From IMG/VR virus record IMGVR_UViG_3300010206_000041, positions 1-33,559 of that record: DNA of 33,559 nucleotides; one strand, written 5' to 3'. The translations under genes were made by a program, and so were the position numbers. Under the pieces are notes generated by a model. That model saw nothing but the letters and a program-made list of their open reading frames with translations, was not told the origin of the DNA and ran no database searches. The DNA is from a virus. Its lineage: Duplodnaviria > Caudoviricetes. Positions 1 through 32,291 of the stretch are shown piece after piece. How positions within the stretch are numbered: position 1 is the stretch's first letter; each line of letters begins with the position of its first letter.

Positions 1-402
1 TTGAAGAAACACCTGCTCCTGATCTCGTGGCTCATGCTCCTGACGCTGACCAGCTTCGCCGAGACACCGACGACCTCAAAGACGCAACAAAAGTCAGAAT
101 CCGAGACCGTCTTGCCAAACTTCAAAAAAATCGACTGGGCGGAAGCCCTTCCGATGTTGGCCCCGGAGGAGGCAATAGCCTTAGGGGAGATCGTTGACCA
201 GTCGATCGACCAATCCTTTGCCCTGGGGTACAAGCAGGCCAGCCTGAGGTACGCTCCCGAGCTTGAATACTGGAAAACCGAGGCCCAATCGGGAAAGGAC
301 CGATTCTGGGATGGCTTCCAGTGGGGTTTCGGAAGTGGAGCCATCGTGACCATCGGATTGACCGCCGTGGGAATTACCCTCATTGAGGCGGTCTTCCGAT
401 GA
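1..402 (+). CDS. Exported/membrane protein (N-terminal signal peptide, C-terminal TM helix); possibly lysis accessory
   Basis: MKKHLLLISWLMLLTLTSFA signal-like; hydrophobic C-terminus; lies just upstream of gp25-like gene; ATGA-coupled to next ORF. Confidence 0.6.
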   Translation: MKKHLLLISWLMLLTLTSFAETPTTSKTQQKSESETVLPNFKKIDWAEALPMLAPEEAIALGEIVDQSIDQSFALGYKQASLRYAPELEYWKTEAQSGKDRFWDGFQWGFGSGAIVTIGLTAVGITLIEAVFR

Positions 403-4980: not shown

Positions 4981-6279
4981 ATGGCCAAGATGATCCCCGA
5001 TGCGGCCCTCAAATACCTCAAAGACAAGAACCTCAAACCGGCCTTCAGCTATTTGGACGTTTGGAACGAAGAGCACGCCACAGGGTTCACGGTTGCCAAG
5101 GCCATGCAGGTCGATGTGCTGACCGACATCAAGGCCGCAGTGGAACAGGCAGTCGAAAAAGGCCAGAGCTGGGAGAGCTTCAGGAAGAATCTGAGGCCAA
5201 CGCTTCAATCCAAGGGTTGGTGGGGACGAAAAGACATGGTCGACCCGGTCACCGGTGAAACCGTCTCAGCTCAGCTGGGGAGTGATCGGCGACTGAAGAC
5301 GATCTATGACGTGAACACCGGCCAGGCCTATCGGAAAGGAACCTGGGACCGGGGTCAGGCCAGCACGGCCCACCCCTACATTCTCTACTCCCTGGGGCCA
5401 TCGGCCCACCATCGGGAGGCCCATCAGGCTTGGGCCGGGCTGGTTCTACCGAAAGAGGATCCTTTTTGGAACACCCACGCTCCCATGAACGGATGGGGCT
5501 GTAAGTGCTATTTGAGGTTCCTCAGCAAGGCGACCTTTGAGAGGTACCAAGCCGAAGGTTACCCGATCCCCAAGAACCTTGATGGAAGTGGAGGCGGTGC
5601 CGCCCCGATCAAGACTGAACGGCCCCCCATGCGGTACCAAACCGTGGTCGATAAGCGGACAGGGCGGGTCGAACGGCTCCCCGAAGGGATCTCGCCCGGG
5701 TTTGGTTGGAACCCCGGTCAGGTTGGTCGGGATGTTCCTACGTTTTCGGAGTTCCTCAAGAAAACCCGGGCGAACTACCCTCAACAGTTCCAGGCCGTTG
5801 CCGAAACGGTGCTGAAGAACACCATCAAGCGAGATCAGTTCAGGGGGTTCATCGACGGAGCCCTTGCTGGAAAACTCACAGGAGACAACCTCACGGCCGC
5901 CGGATTCCTTGACGACCAGGTTGTCGGGTGGCTCATGAAGAACAGGGCCAAGGACGTGGGCGCGGGAACCGTGATCACGCTGGAGAGCCGCCTGGTGAAG
6001 GGGCCCAAGGCCGACAGACACACCCAGGCCGGCGATGCGCTGAGCGTCGAAGAATGGAAGGGGCTGATCGAAGTGCTTCTGGGGGCTCAGGTGTTTTTCG
6101 AAGAGGCCACCGGGAACCTGATCTACCTTGGGTTGAACGGGGAGAAGGTAGTCGTGAAGCTGGAAGGCGAAGCGATATCCCGACGGGGAGCGACTCTCAA
6201 TCAGCCGCTCATTGTGTCGGTCTACAAGGCGACGCCTGAAGAGGTCGAGCGGATTCTCAAGCTACTGAAAGTAAAATAG
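4981..6279 (+). CDS. MuF (gp30) head morphogenesis protein with C-terminal extension, probable nuclease-like domain
   Basis: FTVAK, LQSKGWWG, RRLKTIYDVN, FWNTHAPMNGWGCKC, PGFGWNPG; ~170 extra C-terminal residues. Confidence 0.88.
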   Translation: MAKMIPDAALKYLKDKNLKPAFSYLDVWNEEHATGFTVAKAMQVDVLTDIKAAVEQAVEKGQSWESFRKNLRPTLQSKGWWGRKDMVDPVTGETVSAQLGSDRRLKTIYDVNTGQAYRKGTWDRGQASTAHPYILYSLGPSAHHREAHQAWAGLVLPKEDPFWNTHAPMNGWGCKCYLRFLSKATFERYQAEGYPIPKNLDGSGGGAAPIKTERPPMRYQTVVDKRTGRVERLPEGISPGFGWNPGQVGRDVPTFSEFLKKTRANYPQQFQAVAETVLKNTIKRDQFRGFIDGALAGKLTGDNLTAAGFLDDQVVGWLMKNRAKDVGAGTVITLESRLVKGPKADRHTQAGDALSVEEWKGLIEVLLGAQVFFEEATGNLIYLGLNGEKVVVKLEGEAISRRGATLNQPLIVSVYKATPEEVERILKLLKVK

Positions 6280-6352
6280 CTTGGCCCTCCGGCGGCCAGA
6301 CACGCATCCCTTACGGGATGCGCCGTCAATCTCTCAAGCCGGTGACCAAGCT
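6278..6352 (-). ncRNA. Putative ~75-nt structured small RNA convergent on MuF gene
   Basis: Nested stems AGCUUGGUC/GGCCAAGCU, CCGGC/GCCGG, CGCAUCCC-GUAA-GGGAUGCG; GNRA loop and G-U pair only on minus strand; promoter directly upstream; U-rich tail. Confidence 0.6.
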
Positions 6353-6358
6353 TCTTTC

Positions 6359-6387
6359 AATCTATGCCCGCATCAGAGAAAGATCAA
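6359..6387 (-). promoter_or_regulatory. sigma70-type promoter for the small RNA
   Basis: TTGATC (6387-6382), 17-bp spacer, TAGATT (6364-6359); predicted TSS ~6352 coincides with the stem base. Confidence 0.6.
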
Positions 6388-6392
6388 GGGAA

Positions 6393-6441: not shown

Positions 6442-6768
6442 ATGACCATCTATATCAGCGGCCCGATCACTGGCTTGCCCCACGGCAACCGGGAGGCCTT
6501 CGCCATGGCCGAATTGCGCCTCATCGAGGCCGGCCATGATCCCATCAACCCGCACCATCTCGTCAGCGACGCCTACCCTGTTGCACGGGAGTGGATTGAC
6601 TACATGCGTCTCGACATTTCGGCCATGATGGACGCCGATGCCCTGCTGATGTTGCCCGGGTTCGCCGGTTCCCGAGGGGCCTCGATTGAGTTTCAGCTGG
6701 CTGTAGACCTGGGGATTCCCGTATACCACGAACTGAGTGCTATCCCGGCCGCCATAGGGCCTCGCTGA
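6442..6768 (+). CDS. DUF4406-like (nucleoside deoxyribosyltransferase-fold) protein
   Basis: IYISGPITG...NREAF...INP...W.DYMR.D...DALLMLPG...SRGASIE. Confidence 0.85.
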   Translation: MTIYISGPITGLPHGNREAFAMAELRLIEAGHDPINPHHLVSDAYPVAREWIDYMRLDISAMMDADALLMLPGFAGSRGASIEFQLAVDLGIPVYHELSAIPAAIGPR

Positions 6769-7333: not shown

Positions 7334-8671
7334 TCACTTCCACGCCACCAAGTGCCATGATCGACTAACTTTCTTTCTTTCCACCTTGACGGTTTGCCGT
7401 AGCTTGGATTGAACCTCAGCCTCCCTGGAAGGGTCATAGGTGATAGTCAGTTTGCGTCTGTCAGCGGTACGGATCTGAAATCTTGGAGGTTCTCCAGGCC
7501 ACACTGCCAGTTGCCCAAGAATGCCCTCGACAACGAGATCGTCAGTCTCTCTTAGCGAATCCTTCAGGGCCTTGTGAGCCCTATCAAAGTTCTTGCTGGC
7601 ATCCGCCTCAAAGGTTGTAATCGGTTTGGGTTGAGTTGGAATATAGACTTCAAACGTCGGCTCCCCAAAGGAAGGAAACATCTTCCCGATCGACGTCATT
7701 AGCTCCCGAGCAGCTTCTGGGGCGAGCTTTGCTTTTTCACAAAATTCGTCGACTCTTTGGTCTGGATCGCCCATCGTCTGGAGGATAGGGGTAGCTTCCA
7801 CGACCGCGCGGAGGTGGGCTTTCGTGTCGTTCACAATCTTGATGACTGCTTCATCATCGCGTCTAGACACAATATCGAGAAGCAAGACGGCGCTGGTGGG
7901 TGCCGTTCCTGCAACCCTTACGTCAAAGTCAATGAGGGAGGCAGGATGAACCTTCTCGAGGAACTTCTGAACAAAGCTGTAGAACCTCTCAATCCAGGCA
8001 GCCGAGAACAAACCATCGCTTGCGTCGGGTAACCTCAGGGCGTAATCATGGGCGCCTCGCCGGAGATCGGAAAACCCGGACTCCCGATCAAACTCGTTCT
8101 GCATATTCTCGATGACTTGGATAGATCGGCTGTAGGCCTTGGCGAAGTCGAAATCAGGGTGGCGACGCTTGAAGGAGTCCTGCAATCGCTTCATTTTCTC
8201 ACGAGCGTGTTGGATGTGCCGGAACTCGACCTTGCCCATATCAGCCCAGGTTTCTGTGGTCATCTTTTTTGCCCCCGTGTCGACGACAAGGTAAGAACGG
8301 TGTCTGTCCCAGTAGGCCCAATCCGCAGCTTGTTTTTGGAACCATTCTTGGTCTCCTTGTGAAGGCGGGTCGTCGGCCGGACTTGGCGAAAGTCCGATAA
8401 CCTTCTTCTCGGAATTTGGCCAAGGGAAGTCTAGCACCGATTGCTCAAAAATCGGAATAGAGTCGTCCTCCTTGAAGAATGCAACATAGGCAACGACGGC
8501 TAATCGATTAAGACGGTTAAAAAACACGAGCACTGAGGACGCTTTCTGCTGATTCAACCATTCGGAAACGATGCGCTCGACCATTTTCAGATCGTCGGAT
8601 GTCCATTGGTCCGTCGTGGCTATTGTTCGTAGTTCCTTGCGGTCGATTCTCTGAACTTGCATCCTTGTCAA
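7334..8671 (-). CDS. Hypothetical 445-aa protein (moron) with possible C-terminal OB-like beta domain
   Basis: Long ORF with AAGGAG upstream; last gene of repressor-linked minus-strand cassette. Confidence 0.75.
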   Translation of the reverse strand: MTRMQVQRIDRKELRTIATTDQWTSDDLKMVERIVSEWLNQQKASSVLVFFNRLNRLAVVAYVAFFKEDDSIPIFEQSVLDFPWPNSEKKVIGLSPSPADDPPSQGDQEWFQKQAADWAYWDRHRSYLVVDTGAKKMTTETWADMGKVEFRHIQHAREKMKRLQDSFKRRHPDFDFAKAYSRSIQVIENMQNEFDRESGFSDLRRGAHDYALRLPDASDGLFSAAWIERFYSFVQKFLEKVHPASLIDFDVRVAGTAPTSAVLLLDIVSRRDDEAVIKIVNDTKAHLRAVVEATPILQTMGDPDQRVDEFCEKAKLAPEAARELMTSIGKMFPSFGEPTFEVYIPTQPKPITTFEADASKNFDRAHKALKDSLRETDDLVVEGILGQLAVWPGEPPRFQIRTADRRKLTITYDPSREAEVQSKLRQTVKVERKKVSRSWHLVAWK

Positions 8672-8720
8672 ATCTCCTTGGCCAACTAGGTCCTAATTCC
8701 GGCCGTCTTTCTTCATCGTG

Positions 8721-8945
8721 TCATTTCCCTGGATGGCAGACATTGCACGCCTCCAGGCCCATTTTCTTTGCACTCTCAATCGTTGTTTCGAGGACTTGCT
8801 TCGACTTCTTGATGGTCCGACAAGTCTGGACGTGGTACTTCCCCCCTTTTGGGGTGTAGTAGACCGAAGTGGTCGAAGCCTGGGCCACGATGGTGACCAA
8901 GAAGAGGAGTAGGAGGAAGACGGTTACCCTTCGGTACACACTCAT
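8721..8945 (-). CDS. Small secreted/membrane protein with Ada-like metal-binding domain
   Basis: Hydrophobic N-terminus, then VYYTPKGGKYH..TC...AKKMGLEACNVCHP; ATGA overlap with ankyrin gene stop. Confidence 0.8.
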   Translation of the reverse strand: MSVYRRVTVFLLLLFLVTIVAQASTTSVYYTPKGGKYHVQTCRTIKKSKQVLETTIESAKKMGLEACNVCHPGK

Positions 8946-9910
8946 TTCTTCATCGCGTCCTTCAGCGTTTTTCGTACCGTACTTGTCTTTAGGTACCTGT
9001 TCTGGTCCAAGTAATCGAGGGCGGTACGACCGGTATCGTCTTCCAGGTTCGGGTTGGCTCCGGCCTTCAAGAGCGCAGGGATCGCCCAAGCAGTAGAAGC
9101 GTCGTGCTGAGCCAGAGTCATCAGCGGGGTCGTTTTCATGTATGTGCCGGGGATATTTGGATCCAAACCTTTTGCTAACAGGTAGTCAATGACTTCTTTC
9201 TCCGCATCTGGCCACACTGCCGTGTTGATGACCGGGACTCTAGCCCTGTTTAGAACCTTCGCACTGAGACCGCCATCAAAGAACATCTTGAGAATCTCAA
9301 GTGTCTGGCGGTTCTCCATGCCGGCCCTATGAAAGACTGCCAACACAGAAACCGTGCCTGGAATGTCTTTTTTATCGAGGCACTTTGTGAAAAGGAGCTT
9401 CACGACCCTGAGATCCTCATTAAACTCCAGGGCTGAATCTAGGGCTGTAGCACCTACATCGTTTTTTGCCGTAGGATTTACACCCAACGCCAAAACGCTC
9501 TTGACCTTATCGAGCGACCCCTTTTCCGCAACAGAGGATAAAAGGGTCTTATTCTGGAAAGTTGCATTTAGGTCCACCCCGTGTTCGGCCAGGAAGACAA
9601 GGACTTGCGGGTTTTCGGATTTTGCAGCTGAAAAAGCTAAAGGCTCACCATAGGGCCCCAGGCTGGAAACCTTGGCACCGGCTTCAACGAGTGCCTGAAG
9701 GATTTCCATATTCCCCTTTGCCGCTGCAAAGTGGATCAAAGGGCCATTTTCATAATCAAAGAATTCATAGTCTGCACCTGATGCGAGAGCTAGTTTTACT
9801 TTTTCTGGTGAGTCGTAGGTGATCGCCCTGATCAAATCGTTCGTGGCGTCATTTTGACCAAAAACAGCTGTGGCACAGAGCAGAAACAAGACTCCGACTA
9901 GGTATTTCAT
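8942..9910 (-). CDS. Secreted ankyrin-repeat protein
   Basis: Signal peptide MKYLVGVLFLLCATAVFG; repeats LIHFAAAKGNMEILQALVEAGAKV, GATALDSA, TTPLMTLA, LLKAGANPNLEDDTGRTALDY. Confidence 0.9.
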   Translation of the reverse strand: MKYLVGVLFLLCATAVFGQNDATNDLIRAITYDSPEKVKLALASGADYEFFDYENGPLIHFAAAKGNMEILQALVEAGAKVSSLGPYGEPLAFSAAKSENPQVLVFLAEHGVDLNATFQNKTLLSSVAEKGSLDKVKSVLALGVNPTAKNDVGATALDSALEFNEDLRVVKLLFTKCLDKKDIPGTVSVLAVFHRAGMENRQTLEILKMFFDGGLSAKVLNRARVPVINTAVWPDAEKEVIDYLLAKGLDPNIPGTYMKTTPLMTLAQHDASTAWAIPALLKAGANPNLEDDTGRTALDYLDQNRYLKTSTVRKTLKDAMKK

Positions 9911-9911
9911 T

Positions 9912-10712
9912 TCACATTTTCCTCATGCCGTAGCGAGCCCGGCCGACGACCTCAATCTCTTCGGGCCTCGCCTCAAAGGGGCTGTACTTGGGGTTGTCGC
10001 TGATGACAAGGACCGCGCCTGGGCGTTTTGATAGACGCTTCACCAGGCCGTGTCCGTCGAGACGAACGGCATAGACCCCGTCCCCGTCCCAGCCCTGCTT
10101 GTCGCAAAGCACCATGTCGCCGTCGTACAGGGTTGGTTCCATTGAATCGCCCGATACGCTCAGGGCTGCAATGTTGTTGCCAAAACGGCGGAGGGCACGG
10201 GGCACTTCAATGTAACCAACTACAGTGTCGGCTTCCTGAAGGTCAGCTCCTGGGCCTGCGGAGAGTGCCTGATCGAGAAGAGGAACTACGAAAGCCCCCT
10301 CGCCCGGCACGCTATCCTTAATGGCCAGAAGGCGCTCTCGGTCGGCAACCTGCCGTTCGAGCCTGACGATTCGGCCCACCACATCGGCAGGCGTCTCAGG
10401 GTCTAGGGTTCTTGCCACCGACATGACCTGCTCATGGGCTTCTTTACTAACCCCAAGACCGACACTGGGCCCCTTCAGGAAGGGGCTGGGACGGAACATT
10501 TCACCTTCGCCGGAAAGATAGGCTGGGTTGAGGCCTATCCGATCTATCAGCTTCAGAAGGAAGTCGGAACCAGGGTTCTTGGATCGCCCCGTTTCGATCT
10601 CGCTGATCAACTGAGGTCGAACATCTAGTTTTCGGGCAAGCTCAGCACCGGATAAACCAGATTTTCTTTTCACTTCGCTGATAAAAACAGGCCAGTCAAT
10701 CATTTTTCTCAC
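9912..10712 (-). CDS. Prophage repressor, XRE HTH plus S24 autopeptidase (CI/LexA-like)
   Basis: LSGAELARKLDV...ISEIETG HTH; SAGPG cleavage site, VSGDSMEP Ser, LVKRL Lys. Confidence 0.92.
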   Translation of the reverse strand: MRKMIDWPVFISEVKRKSGLSGAELARKLDVRPQLISEIETGRSKNPGSDFLLKLIDRIGLNPAYLSGEGEMFRPSPFLKGPSVGLGVSKEAHEQVMSVARTLDPETPADVVGRIVRLERQVADRERLLAIKDSVPGEGAFVVPLLDQALSAGPGADLQEADTVVGYIEVPRALRRFGNNIAALSVSGDSMEPTLYDGDMVLCDKQGWDGDGVYAVRLDGHGLVKRLSKRPGAVLVISDNPKYSPFEARPEEIEVVGRARYGMRKM

Positions 10713-31107: not shown

Positions 31108-32291
31108 TGGATATGTACCCTGACGAGCAGGTCGTCGTCGTTGACGGAACTCCAGTTTCTTACCCGGGATTGATCGACGGCAAATTCGCCTCTGGAAACA
31201 TAGCTGATCCCTCGCAACCAGCCAGCTACATCCCGGCAGAGACGGTGAACCTTCTCCTTGATAACACGGCGGCTCTCTTAAAAAGAGTGGGCTTGGAACC
31301 CAACAACCATGACCCCGACCAGCTTGGCAAATTCGCCGACCAGACTGTTTTGAAGTCCGCTATGTTCCGGAACAAACTTATCAACGGGGATTTTCGATTC
31401 TGGCAACGGGGGGTCACTCGAGCCTCTATCGGTTATATGGCAGACCGTTGGATATTCATTGCTACTGGTGGGGCTCCTGCTTTTACTTATAACCAACAGC
31501 CATTCACTCCCGGTCAAATAGAGGTGCCTGGGGAGCCGAAAAACTTCGCTAGGATCGTTTTAACAGCCGCCCCTGACGCCATTACGGGCCTGGCTCGTTT
31601 TGTTCAGTACATTGAAAGCGTCCGAAGCTTGGCGGGACGCAAAGCTACGCTATCTTTCTATGCTAAGGCTGATTCAGCCAAATCGATTTCCGTGGAACTT
31701 GCCCAGAACTTTGGGAGCGGGGGTTTTCCGTCATCGGACGTTTATGTCAATGGGGGGAAGATTAATCTCTCGACATCGTGGCAAAGGTTCAGAATCCCTA
31801 TCACTGTACCGTCGATTTATGGGAAGACCATAGGATCAAGCGGCGACCAATACAGTTCTCTTGGCCTTTTTCTGTGGGTTGCGGCTGGTTCCGCCTATGC
31901 CGATCGAACCGGGGCCCTCGGAGTCCAGACTGGCACCTTCGATTTCGCAAACGTTCAGCTTGAAGAAGGTGACATCGCGACCGCTTTTGAACAGCGGCCA
32001 GATGGGATCGAGTGGATGCTCTGCCAGCGTTTTTATGAAACCGGCTATTCGCAGATGCTCGCTGTTCGAATTAATACTGGGGGGGGATACTATCACAATT
32101 ATTGGACAACTCTATACAAGTCAACCAAGAGGATCATTCCGACAATCACGCAAGAGATGATATCTGGTGCCACCTTCGGTGGTTGGACCTCAAGTAGAGA
32201 TGAACTTCGAATTGCGGCATACACAATAGGAGACTCCGGGGTTGGGATCAACACTCTGGCATGTAATTGGGCCGCCGACGCTGAGTATTGA
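31107..32291 (+). CDS. Tail fibre / receptor-binding protein
   Basis: RNKLINGDFRFWQRG, TLSFYAKA, VQLEEG.IAT.FEQRP...E..LCQRFYE, WAADAE. Confidence 0.85.
   Translation: MDMYPDEQVVVVDGTPVSYPGLIDGKFASGNIADPSQPASYIPAETVNLLLDNTAALLKRVGLEPNNHDPDQLGKFADQTVLKSAMFRNKLINGDFRFWQRGVTRASIGYMADRWIFIATGGAPAFTYNQQPFTPGQIEVPGEPKNFARIVLTAAPDAITGLARFVQYIESVRSLAGRKATLSFYAKADSAKSISVELAQNFGSGGFPSSDVYVNGGKINLSTSWQRFRIPITVPSIYGKTIGSSGDQYSSLGLFLWVAAGSAYADRTGALGVQTGTFDFANVQLEEGDIATAFEQRPDGIEWMLCQRFYETGYSQMLAVRINTGGGYYHNYWTTLYKSTKRIIPTITQEMISGATFGGWTSSRDELRIAAYTIGDSGVGINTLACNWAADAEY

Follow-up and report, generated by a model that had tools for sequence, protein, structure and literature searches.

A conserved convergent RNA gene behind the MuF-BECR tails of Mu-like phages and its proposed role in immunity

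PBECR/MuF-C domains are common in the head proteins of phages. Type I antitoxins of the txpA/RatA type converge on the 3′ end of the toxin. According to the accessible text of Jamet 2017 (PMC5576092), a small ORF follows 89.4% of 191 MuF toxin genes. The accessible portion of Iyer 2017 (PMC5512222) proposes mRNA or crRNA as targets of the PBECR/MuF-C domains and makes no mention of a partner RNA. In toxin-antitoxin (TA) systems of type III, as set out in the available sections of PMC5086642, a tandem-repeat antitoxin processed by the toxin lies upstream of the toxin gene, with one promoter for both and a terminator between them. No description of an RNA paired with a MuF-BECR protein was found in the searched literature, which was mostly non-subscription and partly accessible as excerpts, and which included a 2026 BECR preprint and the Minerva preprint.

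The window analysed here, i.e. the whole stretch of 33,559 nucleotides of the IMG/VR record IMGVR_UViG_3300010206_000041, has a Mu-like phage gene content comprising a Mu-type gp27, terminase, portal, MuF, repressor, GemA, Mor, protease, capsid, and tail genes. That Mor precedes the protease and capsid genes is an unusual gene order for a Mu-like phage. A leftward block on the minus strand (7334-10712), containing the repressor, an ankyrin-repeat gene, and a 445-aa ORF (phrog_28569), separates the head genes from the early operon. Based on MuF, the nearest named relatives were mostly prophages of Treponema and other spirochaetes. The muF gene (4981..6279, plus strand) lies 3′ of the terminase and portal genes and encodes a protein of 432 aa with a Phage_Mu_F domain at aa 49-178 and a C-terminal extension at aa ~250-432 (5728..6276). 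This is the layout of the MuF polymorphic toxins, which are encoded in the packaging module and join a MuF domain to a C-terminal toxin domain that varies.

The C-terminal extension was predicted to be a PBECR/MuF-C-like RNase with a BECR-fold core at about aa 329-430. An AlphaFold2 model built on 14 sequences reached a pLDDT of 92, and the model and the structure comparisons agreed on a helix followed by a sheet of four to five strands, which is the BECR fold, fused to MuF. The structure neighbours in the ESM Atlas were clusters of MuF_C, PBECR2, and PBECR3 (TM 0.83-0.85), and the feature search in the same resource, used as a lead only, returned clusters of the same three families with a best value of 0.87. 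When the tail model was compared with 48,161 chains using VIA-align, the top rows had low but mutually consistent Z values, with BrnT in first place (Z 4.4, rmsd 3.4, 72 aligned), a Salmonella TA toxin (Z 4.3), the colicin D tRNase (Z 4.2, rmsd 3.2, 83 aligned), and CdiA toxins. The BFVD search returned MuF-C- and nuclease-annotated proteins, 17 of them at E ≤0.001 and the MuF-C matches at E 2e-4. These three comparisons support the toxin-like BECR domain that had been proposed in the preliminary description. The clade is divergent, with residues 250-432 giving no Pfam match at E values up to 10, no PHROG match, and nothing at E ≤0.001 with Foldseek against the PDB. Profile comparison tied the tail of the window clade to the Mu and Sakai tails. 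The PBECR active-site pattern in the accessible part of Iyer 2017 (PMC5512222), a His within the N-terminal helix plus a C-terminal Ser/Thr, is matched by His347 (6019..6021) and Ser413 (6217..6219), both placed by alignment and model rather than by superposition on a catalytic complex; a His lies in the same range of residues in 40/40 clade loci. We infer the catalytic roles of the two candidate residues from that published pattern, and the tail is predicted to be a PBECR/MuF-C-type BECR domain that has kept them.

On the opposite strand, a small RNA of about 75-80 nt was predicted at 6278..6352 (minus), with its 3′ end overlapping the muF stop codon. It comprises an outer stem (6278-6286/6344-6352), a short second helix (6289-6293/6338-6342), a conserved internal loop, and an 8-bp hairpin capped by a GUAA tetraloop (6303..6322). 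The nested stem had been described at the right coordinates, since the minus strand of 6270-6360 folded at -46.3 kcal/mol (z -5.84; equalled by 0/200 shuffles) versus -36.7 kcal/mol (z -4.41) for the plus strand, and the G-U pair and the GNRA loop are indeed formed on the minus strand only. Past the outer stem, a U-rich tail (6267..6277, minus), which is likely the 3′ end of the RNA, is encoded by the last muF codons. The MuF proteins of the clade end in a Lys/Ile-rich stretch (K-K-I-R or K-V-K), and it is the codons of this stretch that provide the convergent RNA with its U-tract. The sigma-70-like promoter TTGATC-17-TAGATT (6359..6387, minus) was located with its -35 element at 6387-6382, its -10 element at 6364-6359, and a 17-nt spacer, placing the start at about 6352 as previously suggested. 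Its score of 8/12 was under the threshold of the scanner, which found no promoter, but the site is credible because its position is conserved across relatives. A separate promoter had also been claimed for the DUF4406 ORF (6442..6768, plus strand), for which no site passed the scan and at most an extended -10 element was visible by eye. This ORF is a neighbour rather than a part of the conserved module, being found downstream in 1/39 clade loci. The next ATG ORF past muF begins 163 nt downstream and is not conserved, and a 54-codon TTG frame that spans the hairpin is without a conserved counterpart among the ATG-started ORFs.

No Rfam family matched the window RNA, and nothing relevant was found in 16 loci. 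A cloverleaf was considered and rejected, with the nested fold at -44.8 kcal/mol versus -36.1 kcal/mol for the cloverleaf in the window RNA and lower in 4/4 RNAs of the window type. Therefore, the structure given in the preliminary description stands, and the window RNA is without a tRNA shape; relaxed ARAGORN called no tRNA for it, and it has no T-arm. A change from CCG/CGG to CUG/CAG in relatives fits the nested helix, and a nested fold accounts for the observed covariation. The RNA is present as a single copy without repeats. At 31200-31280 (minus), inside a tail gene, the window-type RNA model gave a weak match (18 bits, E 0.1), which is probably due to chance.

The regions behind muF genes were compared using 272 sequences, i.e. 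the window and 271 loci from four scans, of which 221 contained the stop codon and 150 nt beyond it and 110 were non-redundant. Four loci with broken or truncated frames (L032, L110, L124, L246) were left out, and the others were sorted, on profile score and visual inspection, into the window-tail clade (40), degenerate clade members (2), other BECR-like tails (34, of which 20 have PBECR2, PBECR3, or MuF_C matches), non-BECR tails (26), and short MuF proteins (4). The promoter was sought as a minus-strand TTG-16..18-TAnnnT pattern at 60-175 nt past the stop, with the expectation taken from shuffles. It was present in 38/40 loci of the window-tail clade (4.2 expected), 14/34 of the other BECR-like tails (2.5 expected), 1/26 non-BECR tails (2.6 expected), one of the two degenerate members, and 0/4 short MuF genes. 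When the loci were limited to those sharing 50% or more N-terminal identity with the window, the pattern occurred in 37/39 clade loci versus 1/16 non-BECR loci. Since the loci share ancestry, these counts are not independent and any p-value drawn from them would be inflated. A coupled downstream ORF of at least 50 codons had the opposite distribution, being found in 9/40 clade loci (two with ATG) versus 25/26 non-BECR loci, and the RNA thus stands where an immunity ORF would be expected, as had been proposed. Across MuF tails, RNA and immunity-like ORF are close to mutually exclusive. These gene-order comparisons support the interpretation that an RNA stands in for the immunity ORF behind the MuF tails of this clade.

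The geometry of the element was similarly constant. In 34/38 loci the longest-range helix, the outer stem, begins at most 14 nt from the -10 element and ends at most 6 nt from the stop. The two degenerate clade members, which carry a deletion at the Arg-His motif, had no stable structure (-15 and -6 kcal/mol). Fold z-scores over a fixed 100 nt separated the groups modestly (median -1.7 versus -0.06), and a score of 5′-3′ closure maximised over lengths was dropped, as it did not separate them (36/40 versus 15/26). The His was scored in a widened residue range, since a narrow one mis-scored divergent tails; L008 was counted as His, though a deletion has shifted the residue there and the sister locus L219 carries Lys. 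Two loci do not fit the association, namely L255 with a promoter and no His, and L058 with a His and no clear RNA.

A long closing stem followed by U's could also be read as a terminator or insulator of the muF end with an incidental promoter, the more so as MuF closes a gene block in these spirochaete-like phages. The distribution and orientation of the element make this highly improbable. At least seven U's in 12 nt were found on the minus strand in 30/38 loci versus 4/38 on the plus strand, the promoter is positioned at the stem base, and five loci (L213, L079, L094, L076, L260) have a separate terminator hairpin or U-run past the RNA body. Furthermore, the element is absent behind short MuF genes, non-BECR tails, and their immunity-like ORFs, and it is also found inside F-G operons. 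Since the promoter is rare behind the immunity-like ORFs of non-BECR loci (3/23), it is no general end-of-operon feature. The hairpin acting only as a terminator, which the preliminary description had named as a refuting case, fits these loci poorly.

The site behind muF, hereafter the slot, is filled by at least five dissimilar RNA types. The window type is common to L001, L192, and L011, whose tails are about 32-33% identical to that of the window where measured, and a model of this type recovered its own four members and, weakly, L080. Covariation downstream of homologous MuF ends, named earlier as a check of the structure, was found in eight GUAA-type RNAs with an invariant tetraloop, in which all eight hairpin pairs have compensatory changes, 92% of the cells pair, and 0/500 shuffles reach the covariation score; their G-U pairs recur on the minus strand. 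The long and short GUAA types gave no end-to-end alignment in MAFFT, and homology between them is thus based on the hairpin and its flanks only. The T-arm type has an 11-bp covarying outer stem, with 11/20 pairs compensatory. Other slot types carry a T-arm and a D-loop-like GG, and loop motifs are conserved across proteins that are 32-33% identical. According to the available tables of Fremin and Bhatt 2021, candidate RNAs lie within 5 kb of MuF genes, among 14 of 16 rows, with HMP2_3504 also near PBECR2/3, and some slot RNAs may already be catalogued there without the MuF-BECR link.

The RNA type follows the protein tree loosely, with 15 changes compared with 27.7 after shuffling and a minimum of 9. 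The tails of L033 and L228 are 98% identical and their RNAs are unrelated, and the window RNA type appears on three separate branches. Consequently, a tight cognate pair of protein and RNA does not fit, and a His-bearing exception likewise speaks against a lock-and-key antitoxin. Two orphan cassettes (L087:2799-3300, L090:1307-1484), each consisting of a relic of an older muF end with its own T-arm RNA and promoter, lie behind the current gene end and RNA and resemble orphan toxin-immunity cassettes. About 40-60 nt beyond the RNA promoter, a palindrome is conserved in L087 (2920-2950, where it is duplicated), L033 (3920-3950), and relatives; it is possibly an activator site of a late promoter and is not evident in the window. 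Within the clade of the T-arm type, L032 has a frameshifted muF tail. Two tiny hypothetical ORFs, phage B3 ORF34 (L413:1199-1297) and Riverbug_28 (L419:1180-1275), coincide with predicted slot RNAs and are probably mis-annotations.

Several slot types being tRNA-like, the RNA might have a job unrelated to MuF, e.g. as a decoy for host tRNA nucleases, with immunity provided by the DUF4406 protein or by nothing. In accordance with this, the weak matches of the T-arm-type model in 151 spirochaete genomes were real tRNAs in 7/8 cases, and RefSeq labels the E. coli version tRNA-OTHER. Relaxed ARAGORN called a tRNA in 20/76 slot sequences, a count of little weight as it has no control set. Such a role is nevertheless very unlikely, because no copy of a slot RNA was found away from a MuF-BECR gene end in the viral pattern scans or the 151 spirochaete genomes, the RNA is lost together with the His segment, and the DUF4406 ORF is rarely its neighbour. 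In the scans themselves, the T-arm-type viral pattern (120 loci) gave 3/3 true matches at MuF ends, the window-type pattern returned three already known contigs and one chance match with no new members, and no strong match to either model was present in the 151 genomes.

The loss of the RNA with the His was seen in phages in which muF is followed by gene G. The gap between the two genes was about 46-139 nt behind eight His-bearing BECR tails, 237 and 298 nt behind two non-BECR tails, and -4 to -1 behind six His-less tails (Mu, PhiR68_1, D3112, JBD67, L065, L118), which overlap gene G and thus leave no room for the RNA. Eight further phage records were examined for the His, the gap, and the promoter. 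The His was accompanied by a 120-nt gap and a 9/12 promoter in B3, by a 124-nt gap and a promoter in an E. coli Mu-like insert, by a 141-nt gap in Lsp-JY19, and by a strict promoter site with no gene G nearby in Riverbug and MMP7, while PM105 is without the His and has a gap of -4, overlapping gene G. The exceptions were YO088, which overlaps gene G although its His is kept, with Ala in place of the Ser/Thr, and RS138 (L415), which has a frameshifted tail, a gap of about 12 nt, and no RNA gap. Most of the His-less tails have no RNA slot behind them.

A transcription start for a slot RNA is on record in E. coli. The E. coli version of the slot matched 176/5,426 genomes, and in 22 of the 25 matches listed RefSeq annotates a tRNA-OTHER at the slot, with the minus strand given in the single record inspected. 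In the Sakai prophage Sp18, the 118-nt gap between ECs_4971 and ECs_4972 holds a tRNA-like fold. The Sakai tail scored 30 bits against the window-clade profile, compared with -0.9 or less for three non-BECR controls, and its His aligns with His347, while Mu is without that segment. The accessible dRNA-seq start-site table (Sy 2020, PMC7547250) lists a minus-strand start at 5058595 with an enrichment of 14.58, classed as antisense, and the upstream sequence given there for this start ends exactly at the predicted first base of the RNA. This table entry documents, for the Sakai lysogen, the start site of a slot RNA of a different type from that of the window. The convergent, self-promoted RNA of the preliminary description is conserved in the clade and has a counterpart in the homologous slot whose start is mapped. 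Relaxed ARAGORN typed the Sakai slot copy as tRNA-SeC, and the tRNA-OTHER features of E. coli Mu-like prophages (L421:761-840; L422:8641-8723) correspond to the slot RNA between muF and gene G.

The antisense label of the Sakai start in that table agrees with a cis-acting, type I-like role, in which the RNA would pair with the 3′ end of the muF mRNA and cause its decay in the lysogen, the fold serving stability only. The complementarity of the RNA to the muF 3′ region is complete and reaches across the stop, and this role predicts the free exchange of RNA types at the stop that was seen. We regard it as unlikely, since loop and tertiary-type motifs (GUAA; T-arm with D-loop-like GG) are conserved across such divergent proteins and the long closing stem hides most of the RNA. 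Antisense pairing would presumably also give no protection from injected protein or during lytic synthesis, and it leaves unexplained why other toxin tails never use it. Alternatively, the RNA could be a positive partner in a packaged and injected MuF ribonucleoprotein, serving as cofactor, as cargo, or as a module for specificity or guidance. The same co-occurrence with His-bearing tails is in its favor, as are the variable arms built on a conserved frame and the exchange of RNAs between near-identical proteins. This is distinctly improbable, as an apparently active nuclease would then have no immunity gene at all, the promoter, which is of the host type, fires in the Sakai lysogen rather than being late-specific, and the guide role raised in the preliminary description found no support in the window, where the RNA has no match >11 nt to the remaining sequence.

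Fold, strand, promoter, and geometry of the module are conserved, and the genomic case for a real RNA module tied to MuF-BECR tails with an immunity role is strong. Because the RNA sits where other toxin tails have the gene of a protective protein, protection of the host cell through binding of the nuclease is its likely function. It tracks the apparently intact nuclease, occupies the site of the immunity ORF, and moves with the toxin gene end, which argues for inhibition by binding. The best reading, to which we assign roughly an even chance, is that the RNA is an inhibitor or decoy that binds the MuF nuclease and acts as its immunity. The host-type promoter would make the RNA in the lysogen and during virion building, and the RNA would bind and block the BECR domain, in the role that immunity proteins fill for other MuF toxins. 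It would probably be a decoy with the shape of the substrate, resembling tRNA in several lineages and forming a GUAA-capped rod in the window phage, and a naive cell would receive the virion-borne MuF without it. Recognition by shape, as we propose, would make RNA cassettes exchangeable at the stop codon.

A broader proposal, which we advance tentatively at slightly less than even chances, is that phage virion toxins with RNA immunity form a widespread class, in which independently transcribed, exchangeable decoy RNAs plug BECR ribonucleases by mimicking their substrate. Several of these decoys would apparently have been recruited from tRNA, in a polymorphic toxin system with RNA immunity and orphan cassettes. 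If true, an RNA in the immunity slot would answer how phages survive their own PBECR/MuF-C domains, bring the BECR fold and polymorphic toxins into the range of RNA antitoxins, and account for unexplained tRNA-OTHER annotations in E. coli Mu-like prophages. The tRNA-like slot versions hint at the substrate of the nuclease. B3 and D3112 provide a cultured pair for the rule of His with RNA versus no His with no RNA.

Compared with the described systems, the locus resembles type III TA (ToxIN, CptIN, TenpIN), as covered by the accessible sections of PMC5086642, in the mode of action that is proposed for it, an endoribonuclease held inactive by a small structured RNA. This part of the earlier type III analogy is retained. 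Unlike in those sections, the window RNA is single and non-repeated, lies downstream on the opposite strand under its own promoter, and has no predicted pseudoknot (the folding covered nested structures), while the protein is a BECR-fold virion protein with weak co-evolution. The likeness therefore fails for the repeats, for co-transcription, and for the swapping of RNA types between near-identical proteins, and membership in type III was rejected on the repeat array and on the upstream position with a shared promoter. As in the txpA/RatA type, a convergent small RNA overlaps and complements the 3′ end of the toxin mRNA, but here a structural protein of 432 aa carries the nuclease-like domain as the toxin, and the RNA is closed, with conserved loop motifs. 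The T-arm and D-loop-like motifs of slot relatives and the tRNA-OTHER label in E. coli recall tRNA mimics such as the Y RNA YrlA and pseudo-tRNAs; unlike these, the window RNA has neither T-arm nor cloverleaf, and the proposed partner is a BECR domain versus Ro60 for YrlA. The window clade also differs from the described PBECR/MuF-C families in having no Pfam match. The MuF polymorphic toxins, as far as the accessible text of PMC5576092 describes them, share with the locus the MuF domain with a variable C-terminal toxin, the place in the head module, and orphan-like cassettes. Our non-BECR controls follow their small-ORF rule (25/26), whereas the window has no small immunity ORF and carries a convergent RNA gene with its own promoter instead.
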